Virus record (IMG/VR): IMGVR_UViG_3300010163_000004
Span: 136,935-185,001 of that record
From: a virus
Taxonomy: Duplodnaviria > Heunggongvirae > Uroviricota > Caudoviricetes
Length of the DNA: 48,067 nucleotides
Reading direction: 5' to 3' (one strand)
The translations under genes were made by a program, and so were the position numbers. Positions 1,486 to 48,067 of the stretch are shown here, in pieces; position 1 is the first letter of the stretch, and every line of letters begins with the position of its first letter. The notes beneath the pieces are model-generated. The model was given only the letters and a program-made list of their open reading frames with translations, ran no database searches and was not told where the DNA came from.

Positions 1486-2760
1486 TTGAAACGTGTAGGA
1501 TATTTGCACGAGAAAGTATACGCTGAAGATAACATCGAGCTAGCTGACAATAAAGCTAGAAGAAATAAGTCTATTAGATGTGAAATCAAGCAGCATGATA
1601 AGAATAGATTAAAAGAAAATAAGGAATTATCCAATAAGTTAAGAGATTTGATTTATCAAACCTCTGAATACAGTACCTTTATAATATATGAACCTAAAGA
1701 AAGATTAATCTTTAGACTTCCATACTATCCAGATAGAATAACTCACCATGCTATAATGAATATTATGGAGCCTATTTGGACTAGTATATTTATAGACCAA
1801 ACATATTCCTCTATACGAAATAGAGGTATTCATAAAGTAGAGTATGATTTGTTTAAGGTGTTATAGAAACATCCAGAAGAAACAAAGTATTGCTTGAAAA
1901 TGGATATAAAAAAATTCTATCCTTCTATAACTCATGACATTCTATACAAAATGTTGTAGAGAAAGATAAAGGATAAAAAACTATTAAAACTGTTAAAAGA
2001 AATAATCTATTCAGCGAAGGGAGTTCCTATTGGAAATTATCTATCACAATTCTTTGCAAATTTATATCTGACATATTTTGACCACTGGGTAAAAGAGGAG
2101 TTAAAATGTAAGTACTACTTTCGATATGCTGACGATATTGTGATTCTTGGTAATGACAAGAATTATTTGAGAAATGTATTAGTATCTATAAAACTATATT
2201 TGAAACAGGTTCTTAACCTAGAGTTGAAGCCTAATTATCAAATATTCCCTGTAGAAAGCAGAGGTATTGATTTCGTAGGCTATAAATTCTACCATACTTA
2301 TATTCTATTGAGAAAATCTATAAAAATGAGAATGTTTAGGCTTATAAATCTATATAAATAGAATAAGATTGATAAAGATGAATTGAATAGAAGAATGAGG
2401 TCTTATTTTGGATGGATGAAATTTTGTAACTCTAAGAACTTGCTGAGAAAGGTAGAGGAGTTAACTGGATTGAAATTCTCTAACTGGAATGGAAAAGAAG
2501 TTAACATATCTAAGTTTTATAATAAATATATTCACATTGTAGAGGTTGTTGATTATGACAATCATTTTCGAGTGCATTTCATGTATAACAATAAACCCTA
2601 CTATTTTAAAAGTAAGAATAGGAGATTGCACTATTCTTTGCTTAGATACAAATTTCCTATAAATTTTAAAATAACACCTTATGTTGGAGCCGAATAGAAT
2701 ACAAATGGACGTTTATCCTTAGACGATCCAAAAACTTGGGAATGGTACTTATTACTATAA
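1486..2760 (+). CDS. DGR reverse transcriptase with C-terminal extension (424 aa with TAG=Gln)
   Basis: TTG start, MKRVGYLHEK N-terminus, IYEPKERLI..LPYYPDRITHHA, LKMDIKKFYPSI, GVPIGNYLSQFFAN, YFRYADD (YADD at 2125-2136), GIDFVGY, SYFGW. In-frame TAG at 1864, 1957, 2359 and 2695; first TAA at 2758. Confidence 0.93.
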
Positions 2761-3058
2761 CTATGATATAAAAGAAATTAGTGTTAAAGTATCTGATTTA
2801 GATAATACCGTAAAAGAAAAAACTTACTATAGTTTTATATAGGTATTAATAAACGGATAGCCTAATTACAAAGATTGTGTAAAAGCTATAGTTAGAAGAT
2901 TCCTTACGGTTGATGAAGAATTTGATTTAATCAATTCATATAATAGTTATTCAGAAAATCTTATTTCTGACTCTGAAGTTATTAACGAATACAAAGAATA
3001 TCTTAACATATTAAAATAGATAAAAGCTAAAGTCAAAGAAGATTTTGCTAAAATATGA
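2681..3058 (+). CDS. Hypothetical protein, 125 aa (MLEPNRIQMDVYPQTIQKLGNGTYYYNYDI...)
   Basis: Open with 4 TAG read-throughs, ends TGA; the ATGA overlap couples it to the next gene. Confidence 0.75.
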
Positions 3059-3276
3059 TATATAGAAATGGTAAGTTAATATTACAGGTCCAAAAAGATA
3101 TTCTAGAACTTGTAGAACAAGTTTAGCAAAGAGTACAAAAGAACATTGGAGCTATATATAAAGGGTCGTAGTTAGTCTGGCTTACCGTATACGATGCTGT
3201 TAGAAGCTGTTTTGGTAGCGGAACTTGGCTACAAGACAGACCTTGGTTAAAAGATGATTCATGGAAAAATAATTGA
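3055..3276 (+). CDS. Small hypothetical protein, 73 aa (C-terminal SCFGSGTWLQDRPW motif)
   Basis: ATG overlaps the upstream TGA; two TAG; ends TGA. Fills the gap before the giant gene. Confidence 0.7.
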
Positions 3277-3286
3277 TTTGTAAAAA

Positions 3287-6200
3287 ATGGCAAAATTTGA
3301 AAATTTACCTAATCAGATTACAGATTTAGCAACAGAATGGGATGGACATTCTGGAATGGAGGTTGAGGATTTCATAAGCCGAAAAATAGAGAAGACAGAG
3401 GGATAGGACATAGTAGATGCGTCATATAATTCTTCTACTAGCATCCTTACTCTTCTTAAGAGTAATGGAGATAAGGTAGAAACTGAAGTATCAGTTATTC
3501 CTCCTACGTACTCTTACGGTATTATGGTATACGGAGTAATGTTAGACAATAAGACTGACAAAATCTACACCGAAGCTAATAGTTCTCTTTTAATGCAATA
3601 CAACTCTGATAGAAATGTTAAGGTTGGTATTGCAATGTATGCCGTTGCTACTACTTCTGTAACAACAGATAGAATTGGACCTTTCAATGTTAAGATTAGT
3701 TATGGAACTCAATCTGGAACATTTAGAGTAAACAATATTAAATACAACTAGTGTATTATTGATCCTTCTACTGGAGCAATTACTGGAGTTAATGTATCAT
3801 CAGAGGAATTAATTGATACTCTAGCTTGGATAGATATTACTGAGTTATTTACTAAAACTTAGTCTGCTAAGAAAATTACTGCCCAGGTAATAGATGACCC
3901 TAAGGTAGAAGATACTTTAGACCTTCCAATTACTACTGAAGTAATTACTCTTAATTACAATGGAGAAGTTGTCTTGAGTAACAACTTAGTTAATTTCTCT
4001 CTAACTGGAGGGACAACCAGTAATTATCACTTAGAAGGATTTAATAACGGCTCTGCATTTTCTACAAGTGGAGGAGTATTGAACTATTCTAGTTTAGCAT
4101 CAGGACTTAATCAATTAGCTGTAAAGGCAGTTCACAATACTGAGAGTTCTATTTATACAGACTATATTTATGTAGATATTATTTACACATATAATTGTGA
4201 AGAAACAGTCGTTGCTATTAATGGAGTAAGCAATGGTATTGCGAATAATGGTGTGGCTACCCTGTATGAGTTAACAGTATTTAGTCCCGATAATAGTTCT
4301 ATGGCTATAACTACTTATCTAGAGAATGAAATGCCAGACTCTGAAAGTATGAACCCTACTGAAATCATGAAATATGAAGTTATTAGCGCTTCATCTTACA
4401 ATGAATAGGGAGTCTACGATACTTCGTATAAAAAGTATATAGAGATAAATAGTAGCGATTCTGAAAAATATTTAGTAATTAAAGTGGACGAAACTTACTA
4501 TAAGTTCTATACTGTATTTACTAATAGCTTAGGATAGACTACCGCCTATACAAGCAACTTCAAGACTATGAGAGTAGAGGCAGTGAATCCAGAATTTATA
4601 TATTCGTAGGATATAGCTCCTTCTAAGAACTTTGACTAGATTGAAGGCTACTTAAATGATATTTTTGTTACTGACGAATATGCTACTGGTTCAAATCCAG
4701 CTACAGTAATATCAGACTTAGAATCGTCAGACGGATGGTAGGAAGAAGATGGACGTACTATATTTAAAGTATCTGCGCAGGATAATCCTATACTAAAATC
4801 ACCTCTAAGTTTAGGATTAGGAAATAACTTTACTATTGAATTAGGATTTAAAACTTATAATATTAGTGATGAAAGCAAACCAATAGCTACGATAGGAAAC
4901 TTCTAGTTAAGACCTACTCAATTCTGTTGGAATACCGAGGATAACGACTTATTTAGTGCCAGAAATGCTCAATTCCAAGAAGGAGTGGAGACTCATGTAT
5001 TGGTAACTGTATAGAAAGGTTTTATTATCTCTAAGAGTGATATTTACTATCCGAACTTCCTAGCTAGCTTCTAGAATGCTTTTGATTAGGCAGCTCCTAC
5101 TACTAGCATTAACTTAGTTAGAATATATGTGAATGGAGTAATTGATAGAGAAATTTCTTTAACAGATTCTGAACTTAATACGTTTGCTTCTGCAGCATTG
5201 TAGATTAATCCTACAACTGCTGATATTGATTTTTATCTATTCAGAGTATATAATAGTACTGCTCTTACCTTCAATCAGGTTTAGAAAAATTATCTCTCTT
5301 TCTTGAAAGAAAAGACCTCTAAAGAAGAGTTCTTTGACAAGAACGATATTCTTGGAACTAATGGAGAAATCTCTTTTAGTAGAGCTAATAGTAAATATAA
5401 TACTTTGGTATATGTATTCCCAACTGGAGCTAAATTCCCACATAGGGCTTGGGGAGGTGAAGATAATGAAACTCCTCCGCAAGAAACAGCATAGAAAAAA
5501 TCTCCGGTAACTTTATTTGTTAATTATGCTAACTCTTCTGTTAATAACTTATACGGAGGTAGATTAACTCATGGCCAAGTAAAGGGACAAGGTTCCTCTG
5601 CAATGAGATACTTAATTTGGAATGTTACCTATGCTTTAAATAAATTAAAGGATTAGGAAGGATAGAAAATAAAGAGTCAGTTTACTCCATACTCTTAGTT
5701 AGATACAGAGACTAATACGTTTAGAGAAGATGCTTCTTCTACAAGGGGCTACTACGTAATGCCCCCTTATGATGGACAGCAAGATACTACTGCATATAAG
5801 ATAACTAAATTAGTAGGTAAAGTGAACTTTGCTTCTTCTATGTAGTCTCATAAGATTGGCTCTTGCAAATTATTTGATGATGCCTATAAAGAATCTAGAG
5901 GAAATTTAATTTCAGGAGGATAGAAAGCCGTGCATGAAGAACCATTCCTATACTTCTACTGGGAAACTGATTTAGAAGATGTTTCTACTATAGAACTAGC
6001 AGATTTGTTAGATAATGATGAATCTATCAAATTTATGGGATTCCAAACTTGGGGAGCAGGTAAGGGAGACGATGCTTCCAGCGGATATGACAAAGATATA
6101 ACTCCTGAATATCTAATGCTAGAAGGTGGTGAAAACACTGACCCATCTGTAAACTTTAGACGTCCTTGGTAGGCTCTTCAAAGAGCCTCCGGTGTACTTG

Positions 6201-19566: not shown

Positions 19567-19643
19567 ATGAGAAGAAAGAAACCTAATGTACCAAGAGCAG
19601 AGTTAAACGTGGAGGAAAAATTAAGAAATCTTGTAAAAGATAA
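19567..19643 (+). pseudogene. Basic micro-ORF with apparent 1-nt deletion (restored: MRRKKPNVPRAGVKRGGKIKKSCKR)
   Basis: GCAGAGTTAAA here versus GCAGGAGTAAAA in the adjacent paralog; the -1 frame reads VKRGGKIKKSCKR-TAA. Confidence 0.5.
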
Positions 19644-19648
19644 TAGAT

Positions 19649-19732
19649 ATGGGAAGAGTTAAAATGAATAGCCCTCGTGCAGGAGTAAAAAATGGAGGAA
19701 AAGTCAAACGCCCAAAATCAAAGTCTAAATAA
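19649..19732 (+). CDS. Basic micro-protein, 27 aa (MGRVKMNSPRAGVKNGGKVKRPKSKSK)
   Basis: ATG to TAA; shares the PRAGVKxGGKxK motif with the upstream micro-ORF. Its NGGK codons contain the ATG of the next gene. Confidence 0.55.
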   Translation: MGRVKMNSPRAGVKNGGKVKRPKSKSK

Positions 19733-39293: not shown

Positions 39294-42200
39294 ATGGAAT
39301 GGGTTAAATTACTAAATAACATAAGACTAGAAGCTTAGACTAAAGTTATACCAACTAAAGGAAATCTTGTATATGAATACAATCCCTTTAGAAATTATAG
39401 AATTACATAGAATATGTATGAATATAAGGGATAGCTTTATTCATTAGGAGATTTATGGAAGATATTTGGAGTTAGCATCAACTGCACTGCCTATCGTTAC
39501 AAGAAGAATAATGTATATATTTATAAGATAGGAAATTCTCCAAGTTATATTTGGAAACCTGGTAAAGATGATCCTGTAGAAACTAGTTCTGATGCTAATT
39601 AGTTTGGAAAATGGATAGAAGAAGCATATTCTGAAAATCATAATGCAGATAAACGAAATTTAGAGCAGGCATTAAAAGATACTACAGACTAGCTTACTTG
39701 GTATAATGTACCAGATATAGAAACAGACCCATATCTTAGAGAATCAGGAGAATTAGTAGATTTTACTACTGATGAATTAAGTTTTTCTTTGGATCATCCA
39801 GTACATATTATCCCTCAATATAGTTATGATGGTTCTGTAAACCTTATTATTAATGATGGCATCAATATTCCTAGATTAATAAATAGTAGATTCAGTGCTA
39901 CAGGAAAAAATACTTATGAAGTAGTAGACAGAAAAGGGAATAATGATACTAATATATATGATTAGGGAGATTAGTTTGATATTGATACCTCTCTGTATAA
40001 AAGAGTAGTTAAAATTCCTAAAATAGACTTTAAGGGAGTTTCTGCAGGAGGTAATTTAAAAGTTGGAAACTATCATTTCTATTTTAAATTATCTGATGCA
40101 GATGGAAATGAAACTGATTTTGTTGGAGAATCTGGTTTAGTTAGTGTATTTATAGGGTTTAATGACTATTTTTCAGTTACTACTGGATAGAAAAATGAAA
40201 ATAGCTTTAAATAGGTTTAGTTTTAGGTATCAAATGTTGATAGTTCCTATGATTATGTAACTGTTTATTATTCTAGAAGTACAGCAGAGGCTAACGAAAA
40301 CTCAATAACTGAATACATTAAAATAGATAAAAAATATTAGGTTAATAATGCTTCTGTTGCTAATGTTATAATAACTGGTTTCGAAAATGAGGTTACTATA
40401 GACGCTTCTGCCATTAATTTAAATTATAATATAGTAGATAGTGTTACTACTTCTGCAGTATGTTAGAATATGCTATTTTTAGCCAATGTACATAAACAAG
40501 ACGTCCCTTATTTTGAATTATAGGATCTATCTCTAAGATTCCTTCCTTATCTTAAGCAAGAGGAATATGCTGTTGATATAGATTAGAGTTACTCTATAAC
40601 TACTGCAAATAGAGGGTATCTAGATCCCAAATTTATATATGATAAAACTGGATACTGGGGGAATGAAATATATCGTTTCGGAATTGTTTATATTCTAAAT
40701 AACGGGGAGTTATCTTCTGTTTTTAATATTCGAGGTAATTATAATATTAAAGAATTTTCTTCAGAAAACAAGGATAGTTATATAGATGGTTAGTATGCCA
40801 ATATTCCAGTATGGGATGAAAATAATGAGCGTCGTCATATAACTTATAATGAGGAAACCTTTACTCTATTAGAAGATGAAAGAACCTCTTAGTATGAGAA
40901 TGTAAAGGGGGTAGTGTCTTTTAATCCAGATAGAGATACTAATACTATATATTCTGTTGATATAAGAGTAGATGATTAGACTATTTAGGAATTAAAGAAA
41001 CATGTAAAAGGATATTTCTTTGTTCGTTAGACTAGAATACCTACTATACTTGCGCAAGGCATTACTGTTGGTATAGATAAAGAATCTAGAACTCCTACAA
41101 TACCAACAGCTGATGGATTTTTAACTGATTTGTCGGATTCTCTAAGTAAAACTCATGTTACTACTGAAGATATTAATGATGTTAATTTTATCTCAGAAGG
41201 GTTTTTAAGCAGATATTCTTTTAAGTTTAAAAAGAAATCATCTGGTTTATGGGGAAGCCTAGGTACTGCATTATTAGTTGGAGTTGGTATAGCAGCTGTA
41301 GCTGCAGCTTGTGTTTTCGCTGGACCAGCTATCGCTGCGGCAGCAGGTACTATTGCTGGAGCAGCTGCTGCAGGAGGTACAGCTACTACTGCGGCAATTG
41401 CAACCGCTGCCGTATCCGCTGGAGCTGCTGCAGTATCTTCTAGTGCTGTTATTATAGGGGCCGCCGCAGCGTCAGTAGTTGTAGGTACAGCTTTGGCAGC
41501 AGGAATACAAGAAGTTCGATATGGAGTAGGACGTAGTTTCGCTAAAAAGAAATTAGATGGGCGCAATACAATAGCTCCTTCTGGATATAAAATAGTAGAA
41601 ACGGACGAATCTCGTAAACTTGATCAGGATTTTCTTAAAAGATTCATTCCTAAGGATGCTGATAGTAATATAGTTGCTGGCATAATATGTCCAGATTATG
41701 AAATAAACCAACCTTATTATAATTAGATATTTACAGGAAATAATCATTTAATAGAATTAGCTAACTCTCAGAATATTAACTGCCTAAATGGTCATTCTAC
41801 AAATTATTTCACTAATAATGAGCGGCATTTTTATGTTCCCTCTTATTATGATCGAAATATAAGAACAGCTCACACGTTTAAAATAATTCCTGTTCAAGAT
41901 AATATGAAATGTGTAGGAATTGATGATATGATGTTCAGAAGTAGAGCTGGAGAAGCTGAGGAAGTTTGGAGATATGAATGTATCTCCGAGGATTTTAAGT
42001 CAGATACAACTAAATCTGCTGGAGAAGAGGATTCAGAAACTTCGAGCAATAAGAAGATAAATACAGACATTATCAGAGGTAGTTTTGGAGCCTATTTAGC
42101 GTTTAACGATACTAACAACAGCTTTCAACCTGCTGAAACTGTTAATATCTACATACCTGAATACTCTACTAGCAATATGCAAAATTATTTCTATTTGCGT

Positions 42201-45200
42201 ATGATAGATAGTTCCTCATTCTTTGCTATTACTGATCGTTACAGTATTCAGGATACTGACAGTTATTTAATAAAGAAACTAAGTAATATAGTAGGATAGG
42301 AAGACAGAACATGTGGTTACCAATATAATGCTTACAGAGGGGACTGTTATATTTGTCAATTTACTCATAGAGTAAATAGAAACTTCAATGATCCATCTGC
42401 CCCATATAACGACGAAATAGTGGATAATGCTACTTGGAAAGAAAACTATGATCCAGAAAACAGTGAGAAGTATGAACAAATAAATTTGGGAGACGTTAAT
42501 GCTGTTCAATTAGGGATGTGGGTTACCTTTAAAGTTAGGTCTTCTAACAATTTAAATATTAGAACTTTAGATGGTTCCTATGTAGATGAAACGGCTATGT
42601 GTGGACATCCGAGAGGGTACTATCCATACCTTCCTATGAGTACTGAGGGAACGTATAAACACCCAGAATCATAGGTATATAACAAGGGTTTTACTAAATC
42701 TTTAAGTGAAAGATGGAACTTTGAACTTCCTGATGTTCCCCATATAAAAAACTGGTTTGGGACTCGTATCATGTATTCTGATATTCACGTTAATGATGCC
42801 TATAAGAACGGATTTAGAGTTTTCCAAGGAACTCATTATAGAGATTATACTCGCGAATACGGGGAAATAGTAAAGTTAATTTCTCTTGAGTCTAATCTTT
42901 TATGTGTATTTGAACATGGTATAGCATTGATACCTGTCAATGAAAGAGCAGTCGCAGGTGAGGGAACAGGCGGAAATGTCTATATAAACACATCTAACGT
43001 GCTTCCAGAGAACCCAAAAATTATCTCTGATATGTTTGGTAGTCAGTGGCCCGAAAGTGTCCTCAAAGTCCCAGGAAAGACTGGAGATTCTGCATAGTAT
43101 GTCTATGGAGTTGATACAGTTGCTAAGAAGATTTGGCGTACTGATGGAAACACTCTTACTTGTATTTCAGACTTTAGAGTTCAAGAATTTCTAAATCAAA
43201 GTATTACTTTGGGCGAAAGAGAACTTACTCCTAAAATAGGTATTAGAAATGTAAAGACAGTATATAACGCCTTCAAGCGAGACGTATTATTTACTTTCTA
43301 TGACAATACTTATGGCTTTGAAGAAAAGGTTTGGAATCTATGCTGGAATGAGTTATTATAGAAGTTTATAACATTCTATAGTTGGGTTCCTAGCTATATG
43401 GAAAATATAAATAATATTCCATTCTCATTCGATAGAAATACTTCTAAGTGGATTGCTAAACTAGGAACAAGTCATACTGAAAGTTCTTTTGCTGACGGTA
43501 TTACACTATCTAATGTAATTATAGAAAACTCAGAGAATGAATAGGGAGAAGTAGTAACTAACTTTAAAGTTCCAGTTTCTTATGTGAATAAGAAAGGTGA
43601 ATGGGTGACTCAAAACTATACTGTAGCGAATGATGGAATTAGTAGAAAAAAATACATTGGAATATTATCCTTAAGTAATAGAATACTTCCAGATGCTTAG
43701 CTTCACTATTAGATTTCCTATTCCTTGTAGAGAGATTAGTATGGAAACTATAAGAAGTTTGACATAGTCCCCCTAAATTGTGGAGAAACTAATGGAGGTA
43801 TATATCTTCCAGATGATGCTATGTTCGCAGGAGCTTTCATGCCTCTATATTGTCTAAAATTCAAGGAAGGAAAAGATGAATATAGTCCGGTCTATTATAA
43901 AGATGGACAGGAGATGACTGAAGTATCCGATGGAGCTAGCGATACATTCTACACTTATCAAGCTCTATATACCGCAAAATCCCTATTATCTGAATTATAT
44001 TATAGGAATAGTGCAGGACATTAGTATGCAGACTACGAAGTTAATAAAGTTAAGGTAGGAGACTCTATCGAAGGGAATACATTAGAAATAACTGATGTGT
44101 TAGATTATCCTACATTCAAAGACATTACTGGAAAGCGTCCTACTCTTCCTAGAGAAGAAATGATAAATCCTGATAAAATAGTAACCTTACTTAATATTAA
44201 GGCTACAATATCTATTGTTGATAGTGATAATTAGTCTAAACTAAGTGATTCCTATTACAATATGAAAGCAGGATTTTAGTCAGGAACATCTCTAGTAGAT
44301 GCTGGATATTATGAATCTGTTGTAGGAATAGCTCCTAGATGGAACTTATAGTTCTTATCTACAGATTTTTGGAAGCACGGCTAGGCTGGACTGATTGACA
44401 TAGCAGATGATATATATCCTACTTATTGGTATGGAAGACAGCATCCATTCGAATTTGAATGTGTAGTAGTGAACGATCCTTCTATACATAAGATATTTAC
44501 TAATCTTGAAATTGTTGCTAATAAGGCAAAACCTGAATCTTTCCACTATGAAATAATTGGAGAGACATACGACTTTGCAAAAGATAAGGTAAATATGTAT
44601 TTTAGACAGGAAGCTATGAAAGCATTGTGGCAATACAATGGAGCTGATATTTCTTATGATAGGAACTTCTTAAAAGTTCAACCTAGATAGTAGCCAAAGT
44701 CTGCTGACTTCCCGCATAAGTACTATACTAGACAAGATACTATCAATGAAATAGAAGATTATTATATTCATGTAACTTATCCAGACTCACATGATTATCG
44801 TCATTTATCTGGAGCGGAAGTAGTTTACTATCCAAATAGACAAGAATATCGAATCTGGAATCATGCTATGGCTGTAGATATAGACGATTTGAGTTAGGAT
44901 GATTCAAGGTCAATTATCTCTGCTAATTGTTAGTATTTAGAGGACAGATGGAAAGTTACAATTAATCCTATTTTAGTATGCTATAAGAATGAGTATCAAA
45001 AGAAATTCTCTGGTTCCTTAATATAGCCTCAGAACTCTACTTGGGCAAGAGCCGAGAATAGTTCACAAAGCTTACCAACTCTTCCTATTTATAATTCTCC
45101 TATACCGGATCAGGTTTTATCAGCTGGTGGTATAGATTTCCCAGGAAATGACCCAGTACATCCCGAGTGGGGAGAAGATAACGCTCTTTACAATTTATAT

Positions 45201-45419
45201 GATTTATCTGGGTACAATTCCGAAGGAGGTTGGAAACCGTTGGATTTAACTAATTGGTTAGACGATGTTAATATTTACAGATATAACTTTGGGGAAGCAT
45301 AGAATAGAAAAGAGTTAGATGTTAAGGATAAATTCTTAAAGATAAGAATTAGATATTCTGGAGAAGAATTAGCTGTTATAGATTTCTTAAATACTGTATA
45401 TAGAATTAGCTATAGTTAA
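39294..45419 (+). CDS. Tail stabilisation/muzzle-like protein, part 2, 2041 aa
   Basis: SYDGSVNLIINDG.NIPRLINSRF, GGNLKVGNYHFYFK, YRFGIVY, YTREYGEIVKL, WNE..F.TFYSW. Six track ORFs share this frame; ends TAA. Confidence 0.8.
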
Positions 45420-45423
45420 AAAT

Positions 45424-47313
45424 ATGTTTAATAGAAATATAAATAAAGTCAGAAGAATAGCGAAAGCCTATTATGGGCTTTCCATTCCTTCTGGAAATCC
45501 ATATATGACTACGAATGGACTAGCCATCCCTGGTAATGCTATTACTTAGTAGAATTTGCTAGGAACTGATTATAGCGCTGATTTCAGAAACAGAGCTGAA
45601 TAGATAATGGCTCCTACTAATAGTCTTATAGATTTTAATGCTAGAATGGGAGACTTATTTAGCTTAAAGCTAAAGAATGATAGAGATTCCGCTAAAGCTA
45701 TTACATAGATAAAGAGTATGTCTGGAGCACCTTAGAAATCATAGGGAACTTTCTAGAAACTAGGAGGGTGGAATACAGTAGGACAAGCCTCAGACTTCCT
45801 AAGCGGACTAATTGGAGGTGATAAAGATGGATACCTTGGTAAATATGGTTCATTATAGCAAGCAGGAGACTAGGCGTTCGACTAGGCTTCAAATGTAGTA
45901 ATGGGAATAAATCCTCTGGTCGGAGGGATAATGAAGGCAGGAGGTTTAGTTAGTGATGTATTAACTAAATGGGGTGGAATGGGCACAGATTCCATGACTA
46001 AAACCGATGCTGTACTAGGTAGTAAGTTATTATCTCTTACTCCAGTTGGTATGGTTAATGGTTTCTTTGGTAAGAAAACTAGGGATTTTTCTGCTAATAG
46101 AGATACTATAGAATAGGTAGGAGGTTCTTACGGTGGAACTGTTAGGAATATAGCATCAGCAGAAGAAAAAGCTGGAAAGAAATATGGATTATTTAGTGGA
46201 GGAGCAAGAAGGTCAGCTAACAGATTCATAAATAGAACAGAGTCTCAATAGGCGACTATGACTAATATAGCTAATGAGGCTTCCGATTTATCTTCTATAG
46301 CTACTAATATGTCAGATTTAAATCATATTTAGTACGGCTTCAACCTAAATGGCGGATATGATTAGAGATATATGAGAGCTGCTAGACTTGGAACTAAATT
46401 ACAGAGAATTAAAAAACTTAATATATAGTCTCATAAATTAGGAGGTTAGATATAGGGAGCAATAGACTTGAATGAATGGCAGCCTGTTATAACTGAAGCT
46501 GTAGAGTAGTTTGAGTCTGGAGGAGAATTAGAATGGACTCCTATTATAACCCTGTAGGAAGGAGGAAAAACTGAAAAGGTAGATGGAATAACAGGAGCAG
46601 CCCCAAAGATTACTTTCTGGTCTTGGTATAATACTGTTCCAAAAGATAGGCTGTCGAATAATTATGACCTTAAGAAAGCTTTTGAAGTACTGCCATTTGA
46701 GGAGTTAGAGGCGTGGAGAAAATCTTCTAACGAAGATTTAAGAATTGGAAAAAATCACTTACGAAGCATTTATTAGCTTCCCAATGGAGATTATGAATTT
46801 TTAAAGCTAGGAAATGAATAGAGTAATCCAGAGGTTCATTTCGAAACTGATACTTATCATTCTGGAGAAAATGGATTAAAAGATTCTCATGACTTAGTCT
46901 TTGAGAAGGATAGATACTTCTATAGAAAGAAGCCTAAACAATTTAAAAATGGTGGTAAACCAGAACCTATAGATGCTCCAGAAATAGAAGAAACTAATTA
47001 GAAAAATATAATTCCAGAAGGTGCTCTTCATGCTCGCAAGCATAACATGGAAAATGCTGATAACTTGACTAAGAAAGGTATCCCAGTTATAGATAATGAA
47101 GGGGAGCAATAGGCAGAAATAGAAAAAAATGAAATAATATTTACACTAGAAGTTACTAAAAAGCTGGAGGAGTTATACTCTAAATATACAGACTATGAAT
47201 ATTCTTAGAAAGAAAAGGATGAAGTAGCAATAGAAGCTGGAAAACTGTTAGTAAAAGAAATATTATTTAACACAGATGATAGAACTTCTTTAATATAGAC
47301 AGTACAAGTATGA
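45424..47313 (+). CDS. Putative cargo/ejection protein with Gly-rich hydrophobic segments and repeated xxxGG motifs, 629 aa
   Basis: Includes track ORF 45901. Motifs HKLGGQ, FESGGE, LQEGGK, FKNGGK; EGALHARKH..KGIPVIDNEGEQQAEIE; ends TGA overlapping the next ATG. Confidence 0.72.
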
Positions 47314-48067
47314 TGGCTTTAAATGATTTGTTAGTATCTTACAAGCGTATTGAAGCTCCTTCTAGAATCATCCCAGAATTTAAATTCCCTGAATCTTATC
47401 AACTAGTTACTCCTAACATTCCATAGAGTGAGCCTGATTAGGAAAATGTATAGACTCCTAAATATTATACTTCCACTATTTAGAGACCTAGGTTTAGCCA
47501 AACCAAAAGATGGAGTAGTCCATATAAAAACAGAAATACTTGGGTAACCGACTTAGCGGCTGCTTATAGAAAAGCTGGAGTAACTAATGATAATGCAATA
47601 AAGATGTTAATTGCCCAAGATGCTCAAGAAAGCGGTTGGGGACGTTCAGCACAAGGTAAATTCAACTTTGGGAACTTAACCACTGGAGCTAAATGGAAAG
47701 GTGATTATGTTAGAGGAAACGACCATGACGCTAAAGGTAATCCCATCAAATAGAAATTCCGCTCTTATAATTCTATGGATGAGTATGCAGCTGATAAACT
47801 GTAGTTCTTGAAACACTTATATGATTTTGATGAAAATGATGATATTAATACGTTTACTGCCAAACTTACTGGTAAGAACAAAGGCAAGAGGAGGTATGCA
47901 GAAGCTACTGATTATGCTGATAGAGTGGCAGCGGTATTTAGAAGTTTCAAGAATGGAGGAGTTATCAAGGCATAGGCAGGAACTATAGTAGCTGATAATA
48001 CTAGAGTAGTTAAACCTACTATATAGGAGAAGATTTAGAGAATTTATCCTACTAGATAGTAGCCTTA
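47310..48067 (+). CDS. Virion-associated GH73 (glucosaminidase/FlgJ-like) peptidoglycan hydrolase cargo protein, 3'-truncated by the window
   Basis: LIAQDAQESGWGRSAQGKFNFGNL, KFRSYNSMDEY, YAEATDYADRV, then FKNGGVIKAQAGT. Absent from the ORF track because of TAG codons. Confidence 0.8.

Follow-up and report, generated by a model that had tools for sequence, protein, structure and literature searches.

What does a short peptide built around two glycines do when it recurs, copy after copy, between the domains of putative phage cargo proteins? No viruses are more abundant in the human gut than crassviruses, whose protein cargo runs to megadaltons. A conserved joint peptide in such proteins provides a simple rule for dividing unannotated cargo into modules, and the joints themselves offer a natural series of module swaps for study. 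The question framed by such a joint is a sharp one: is the chain cut there, or does the joint act as a hinge and handle? Existing mass-spectrometry data on crAss001 virions could answer it. Here we analyse a window of 48,067 nucleotides, the final 48 kb of a 185,001-bp IMG/VR virus record; coordinates refer to this window unless they are given as genome positions, which refer to the whole record.

Genomic setting of the two genes

Translation with table 11 yielded only short ORF fragments in the region and was rejected, and reading TAG as glutamine gives about 35 abutting plus-strand genes over the whole window. Recoding of TAG to Gln (code 15) is indicated by in-frame TAG codons within conserved coding sequence and by genes that stop at TAA or TGA, and the full-length alignment of the recoded protein with database homologues fits the same reading. 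Under this code, gene A (P0001; 45424-47313, plus strand; 629 aa, 25 TAG codons) abuts gene B (P0002; 47310-48065, plus strand; 252 aa), which is still open at the end of the 185,001-bp record. Gene A has more than 6,400 homologues, and a profile search over 1.8 billion cluster representatives retrieved 1,657 clusters at 50% identity. Relatives in the phage collection came from two uncultured records only, none of them cultured.

Directly 5' of gene A lies the gene for the muzzle protein (39294-45419, plus strand; 2041 aa; Pfam crAss_MUZ, E 4.9e-27), and the window has the Crassvirales structural operon order of a muzzle gene upstream of cargo genes. The cargo genes of crAss001, gp45 and gp46, come after its muzzle gene gp44; gene A therefore occupies the cargo slot. 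Judged from gene position alone, the products of genes A and B are probably carried in the phage particle.

The closest known system to gene A is cargo protein C1 of crAss001 (gp45; PF25725, crAss_CARG1), whose gene is likewise the next one after that for the muzzle protein. The two proteins are alike in general build: the N-terminus is basic, one hydrophobic stretch is rich in Gly, and a long thread is unstructured. In the virion, C1 has separate segments that bind inside the tail barrel and at the portal, and it was modelled as a single chain from the tail barrel to the capsid (Bayfield et al. 2023, PMC10172136); that paper describes no junction motif. The gp45 sequence contains 21 Gly-Gly pairs against 13.2 expected. 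The pattern hydrophobic-x-x-Gly-Gly is not enriched in it (4 versus 3.1), its copies reading A-[F/Y]-G-G. The resolved segments of gp45 lie between Gly-Gly pairs, which is compatible with the idea of joints, but not beyond chance. Homology of gene A to gp45 or gp46 was rejected after blastp, HMM, hhalign and PF25725 had all proved negative. PF25725 found no match in the genome at E values up to 10 and none in 55 homologues of gene A, and the hhalign probability was 0.3. Every sequence retrieved with gp45 as query was at least 96% identical, so no profile could be built. The sole link between gene A and C1 is a language-model match of 0.91 for a database homologue, which we treat as a lead only. 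Elsewhere in the genome, a 552-aa ORF (genome 120395-122053, minus strand; L043) and gp45 (residues 369-423) have a 59-residue module in common (44% identity in pairwise blastp), and a Gly-Gly-type joint precedes the module in both proteins.

A conserved Gly-Gly joint peptide in the gene A family

All motifs listed in the initial annotation, which was made from the sequence alone, were recovered at their given positions, each on the plus strand. Gene A begins with a basic header ending in Gly, the related motif AKAYYG (45460-45477; G18 at least 90% conserved), and carries a second related motif, AARLGT (46378-46395), whose G323 is invariant in 55 homologues. The joint motif HKLGGQ (46432-46449) is followed by two tandem short units (46474-46569), EWQPVIT..FESGG and EWTPIIT-LQEGG, with FESGG at 46510 and LQEGG at 46552, and FKNGGK (46942-46959) closes the domain downstream. 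Gene B adds FKNGGV-IKAQAGT (47946-47984). The tandem duplication claimed for the EWxPxIT unit is also visible as a DNA repeat (46474-46493 versus 46531-46550; 80% identity, spacing 57 nt), and the copy number of the short unit differs among relatives. In an alignment of 55 non-redundant homologues, the Gly-Gly pairs 340/341 (in HKLGGQ), 380/381 and 510/511 (in FKNGGK) are at least 90% conserved.

In diverse relatives, the motif reads [F/Y/L/H]-[K/Q/E]-polar-G-G-[K/E/S]-[I/L/T/V], and the individual copies give the same consensus with [K/E/Q] after Gly-Gly; in this stretch of seven residues, six positions are constrained and not the Gly-Gly pair alone. Enrichment was measured on 146 of the best 150 among the 1,657 clusters, as representatives at 50% identity or less; the motif model gave 310 matches in these proteins versus 3.8 in shuffles. 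Spacing between successive copies is bimodal: distances fall at about 15-50 aa or at about 100-175 aa, and hardly any lie between 50 and 100 aa. A Gly-Gly pair stands within 30 residues upstream of the C-terminal module in 103 of the 109 relatives that hold this module, and among these 103 proteins position -3 is F, Y, L or H in 98 and position -2 is K, Q or E in 97. In about one third of diverse relatives, the motif is three residues from the invariant C-terminal module. Further copies lie 4-6 residues from the C-terminus in most relatives, at the end of each of the tandem 19-20-aa units, and, like leaders, 7-20 residues from N-termini. The Gly-Gly joint peptide is genuine and conserved across the gene A family. 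No published description of it was found in the literature searched.

If chance or composition were the explanation, the Gly-Gly pairs would merely reflect a Gly-rich protein. Gene A is 9.9% Gly and contains 13 Gly-Gly pairs where 6.1 are expected, several pairs in its N-terminal half lack the flanking pattern, and the loose pattern hydrophobic-x-x-Gly-Gly is weakly enriched genome-wide (90 versus 70.5 expected), all of which speaks for such an origin. Yet composition does not account for the roughly 80-fold enrichment of the full motif, the conservation of alignment columns or the bimodal spacing. For the copies in the C-terminal half of gene A the chance reading is ruled out, and we give it next to no credence as a general explanation. 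A DNA-level recombination signal was rejected as well. Since the Gly codons and the flanking codons differ from copy to copy, what is conserved is the protein sequence, and the motif does not represent a site of DNA recombination.

Within this phage the scope of the motif is narrower. A PSSM search of the genome gave five matches outside gene A versus about one expected, and strict copies lie in gene A (four), in gene B, in the 1453-aa protein that comes next in circular order and in three genes elsewhere. The same search found no strong copy in the four largest proteins of the window (2169, 2041 [the muzzle protein], 1856 and 1434 aa). Together with the weak genome-wide enrichment of the loose pattern, this indicates that the motif is not a universal cargo tag in this phage. 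Nor is it general to all the cargo-sized proteins of the phage. Joint-like motifs were also seen near both ends of a conserved 96-aa protein (genome 5210-5500; L003 7877-8167): K-F-Q-A-G-G spans residues 6-11, and Y-R-R-G-G lies eight residues before the C-terminus. The middle of this protein is rich in Pro, Ala and Gln.

Two tandem Lys/Arg-rich micro-ORFs of uncertain coding status (19567-19732, plus strand; peptides of 21-31 aa, relatives included) had been described as little more than this motif. The description fits the 27-aa ORF at 19649-19732, which carries the motif in frame, but not the ORF at 19567-19662, where the motif is present in another frame only. In the relatives L047 and L048 (about 1095-1260), where the flanking gene is about 63-65% identical to that of the window, a 21-aa ORF has the motif in frame; the second ORF is retained in L047, with 24 aa. 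Compared with these relatives, the first micro-ORF of the window looks frameshifted. The micro-ORF region had no blastn match in the phage collection. The second micro-ORF overlaps the start of the next gene (19692).

Modules between the joints

Gene A has a variable slot, bounded by the short units on one side and by the conserved C-terminal module on the other. In the window it is filled by cassette A (46606-46941, plus strand), a domain of about 110 aa that is predicted to be self-contained. AlphaFold with the family alignment models a confident globular domain at residues of about 395-506 (pLDDT 86-97), and confidence is low at 292-394, which covers joints and short units, and at 507-567. 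When cassette A was folded alone, its core reached pLDDT 89-97 and both joints lay outside it. The claim that LQEGG and FKNGG enclose a self-contained domain agrees well with this model, which places both motifs in the low-confidence flanks. Cassette A alone matched no PDB fold (Foldseek E above 1, best Z 4.4), and a PDB profile search found nothing. Two further candidates were set aside: the fold match of the whole model was a generic helical hairpin only, and apparent stand-alone versions of cassette A among shorter proteins were only gene-call fragments.

The C-terminal module (IIPEGALH..; 47008-47310, plus strand; invariant columns 528-623) is the most invariant part of the gene A family. 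AlphaFold assigns low pLDDT to its first part, followed by a helical hairpin at 556-621. At its very end (47287-47313), gene A is without the C-terminal joint tail, L-K-Q-G-G plus 4-6 residues, that is common to most relatives; it stops eight residues earlier than they do, and the same is true of P0005, P0011, P0042 and P0078. The Gly-rich N-terminal part of the 922-aa homologue P0105 is interrupted by an intein that contains a LAGLIDADG endonuclease (Pfam E 1.6e-14 and 6.3e-11).

Relatives differ in the content of the slot, which is empty with a single joint or holds cassette A, B, C or A+C; in every state the motif flanks each cassette on both sides. The three cassettes are unrelated to one another. 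Cassette A occurs in several diverged versions, and cassette C contains HExxH; Pfam had no match for cassettes B and C. In P0076, cassettes A and C stand in tandem with a third joint between them. P0060 and P0068 are 94-96% identical to the window protein over the aligning part and have the cassette cleanly deleted, and their deletion junction is a hybrid of the left and the right joint, L-KNGGKP, in which the full motif is restored. Sequence comparison thus supports the proposal that the motifs bracket discrete domains and may serve as insertion points for new ones, and gain or loss between motifs in relatives, the check suggested along with that proposal, was indeed found.

A motif without a reader could leave part of this picture, either as a tolerated flexible linker or as a DNA remnant of module exchange. 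Gly-rich linkers between domains are common, the indels map to the linkers, and the deletion in P0082 has its breakpoints beside the motif and not in it, and the left copy that remains is degenerate. However, a passive linker would hardly be constrained at six positions across a family of 1,657 clusters, with codons that differ between copies and a full motif restored at the hybrid junction. The two copies that flank cassette A share short DNA identity only, too little for homologous exchange. We consider a passive linker or scar quite improbable.

Gene B repeats the arrangement with a recognisable enzyme. It encodes a GH73 glucosaminidase domain (47562-47951, plus strand; Pfam PF01832, E 2e-10, residues 85-214) that scores 41.8 bits against a cut-off of 30.2, compared with 38.9-46.2 bits in relatives, and it matches PHROG endolysin families. 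FKNGG occupies residues 213-217 and so closes the GH73 domain, as had been claimed, and similarity to the C-terminal parts of relatives stops at the joint FKNGGV-IKAQAGT. Among 36 loci compared, three alternative C-terminal parts follow the GH73 joint. Parts 1 and 2 are phage-tail-lysozyme-like domains of two types, and part 3, found in the window and in L037, is a different, hydrophobic tail; the full-length relative of the same type in L037 has 347 aa.

In the window, this alternative C-terminal module begins with VADNTRVV.. (47988-48026, plus strand), which also opens a stand-alone ORF at genome 2342-3466. The surrounding DNA (47983-48047) has an 88% identical copy at genome 2373-2437, 2.4 kb into the record, and this repeat is probably where the assembly broke. 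Joining the last two bases of the record to its first base would give TAA. Two paralogous ORFs (genome 927-1751 and 2342-3466; L002), absent from relatives, lie between gene B and a DUF192 gene. By eye they resemble protein kinases, with a Gly-rich loop and a Lys; Pfam found a glycine zipper in one and nothing else. Both have a [K/R]-F-G-G motif near the C-terminus, and the ORF at 2342-3466 runs 24 residues further. In one relative, L027 (7088-7885), the DUF192 gene that lies 3' of the GH73 gene breaks off after its first 41 residues and continues into what appears by eye to be a GIY-YIG homing endonuclease; an intact second DUF192 copy follows.

A proposed hinge and handle or a possible cut site

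It is tempting to propose that the joint is an uncut hinge or docking handle. We hold this reading tentatively, at a little less than an even chance, and favour it over a processing site. Genes A and B, next to the muzzle gene and with cell-wall hydrolase domains in gene B, would encode beads-on-a-string proteins that are stored in the particle and ejected, with the motif as the standard joint of the family, set in flexible linkers and heading each module. With Gly-Gly as a hinge, the modules could each unfold independently and travel through the portal and the tail channel separately. The flanking aromatic residue and Lys could serve as a small handle for binding a partner in the virion, such as the lumen of the portal or of the tail barrel, and this contact would serve loading and ordered ejection. 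Modules would be added or lost only where the joint is kept or restored, and for that reason indels would map to the joints. What we infer is that the proteins are packaged in the virion, that the joint acts as a hinge or handle and that it stays uncut.

The copies at C-termini, the tandem 19-20-aa units, the module-adjacent copies and the motif-only micro-ORFs appear to suit a handle better than a cut site. Low AlphaFold confidence at the joints would be equally compatible with a handle, a passive linker or a cut site. Acidic versions of the motif exist (FESGGE, FEDGGE) and argue against a simple charge-based contact. The leader-like copies near N-termini resemble removable leaders and count against an uncut joint, as may, by analogy, the cuts beside Gly-Gly in P22 gp7 and T5 pb2.

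Alternatively, the joint could be a processing site. The enzyme might be a peptidase of the host, a phage protease that has escaped recognition or an embedded peptidase, and it could act while particles assemble or once the proteins have been ejected. We regard processing as possible, though doubtful. Cutting would free the GH73 domain, the lysozyme-like domain, the HExxH cassette and cassette A, and would require no head protease. In the structural models the motif lies in exposed, probably disordered linkers, and the copies 7-20 residues from N-termini are placed as leaders would be. P22, a short-tailed phage, provides a precedent in its ejection protein gp7, which loses 20 residues to the host oligopeptidase A (OpdA) and is cut beside K-G-G-K; the new N-terminus is KGGKG and the preceding residues are Y-P-E, a context similar to the motif. 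Unlike the joints, gp7 has a single N-terminal site that is cut one residue before Gly-Gly, and removal of its leader is dispensable. Because the substrates of M3 oligopeptidases, OpdA among them, are short peptides, such enzymes could explain the terminal copies at most. A second precedent is T5 pb2, a tail-expelled protein in which Gly-Gly marks the border between a hydrophobic stretch and the muralytic domain; mass spectrometry has located its maturation cut (Linares et al. 2023, PMC10038345). It differs in that T5 is a long-tailed phage and that the cut follows Arg (R1127), two residues upstream of Gly-Gly. Both precedents are thus cut upstream of Gly-Gly and not after it. A candidate peptidase is encoded elsewhere in the genome (53465-53791, minus strand; L042), a 108-aa HExxH protein with the joint motif at its N-terminus (residues 3-10) and weak matches to Pfam DUF6782 (E 1.3e-3) and to SprT-like proteins.

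The initial annotation envisaged a polyprotein system with a head protease that cuts at the motif or a scaffold that binds it. Its domain bracketing and insertion points stand, but the prohead protease that it expected elsewhere in the genome was not found: models for S78, S77, S49, ClpP, C39, C48 and C5 peptidases, seven Pfam models in all, had no match in the 185-kb genome, although a divergent enzyme or one of the host may act instead. The crAss001 literature that we examined reports no processing of cargo proteins. A cut 4-6 residues from the C-terminus or between 19-aa units would be without obvious use, and copies that sit directly at the conserved C-terminal module fit a cut site poorly. 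Weighing the C-terminal copies, the 19-aa units, the module-adjacent copies and the lack of a protease match against exposure, leader-like copies and precedents, we rank the hinge or handle above processing.

Two other viral systems offer comparisons. In T4, a capsid targeting sequence with gp21 sites (L/I-x-E) labels proteins destined for the head and for later injection. The motif described here is internal, tandem and C-terminal, and the genome has no match to the gp21-type protease model (PF03420). The adenovirus protease consensus, (M/I/L)-x-G-G|x, likewise places a hydrophobic residue before Gly-Gly in virion core proteins, but in our motif the hydrophobic residue is one position further off, and no C5 peptidase was found. 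A broader proposal, which we think unlikely, has crAss-like phages in general use the joint as an address-and-release code. Its dedicated reader would be a procapsid loader or an as yet unrecognised Gly-Gly-specific protease that packs modular effectors and frees them in the host, and tiny motif-only ORFs would compete with this reader or regulate it.

Virion-delivered proteins of modular build have been described before in phages and conjugative elements as polyvalent proteins (Iyer et al. 2017, PMC5512222), which likewise carry interchangeable enzymatic modules. These include peptidoglycan hydrolases and zincin-like peptidases, and release by the embedded peptidases is predicted (PMC5512222). 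This parallel would favour processing, given that the slot of some gene A relatives holds the HExxH cassette. In contrast to polyvalent proteins, however, the proteins here are small, have one variable slot and are mostly without a peptidase module. The word 'linker' is absent from Iyer et al. 2017, and we saw no conserved junction peptide there. The variation seen here consists of a slot with A, B, C or A+C and a GH73 domain with alternative partners, with only one or two recognisable enzymes per protein.
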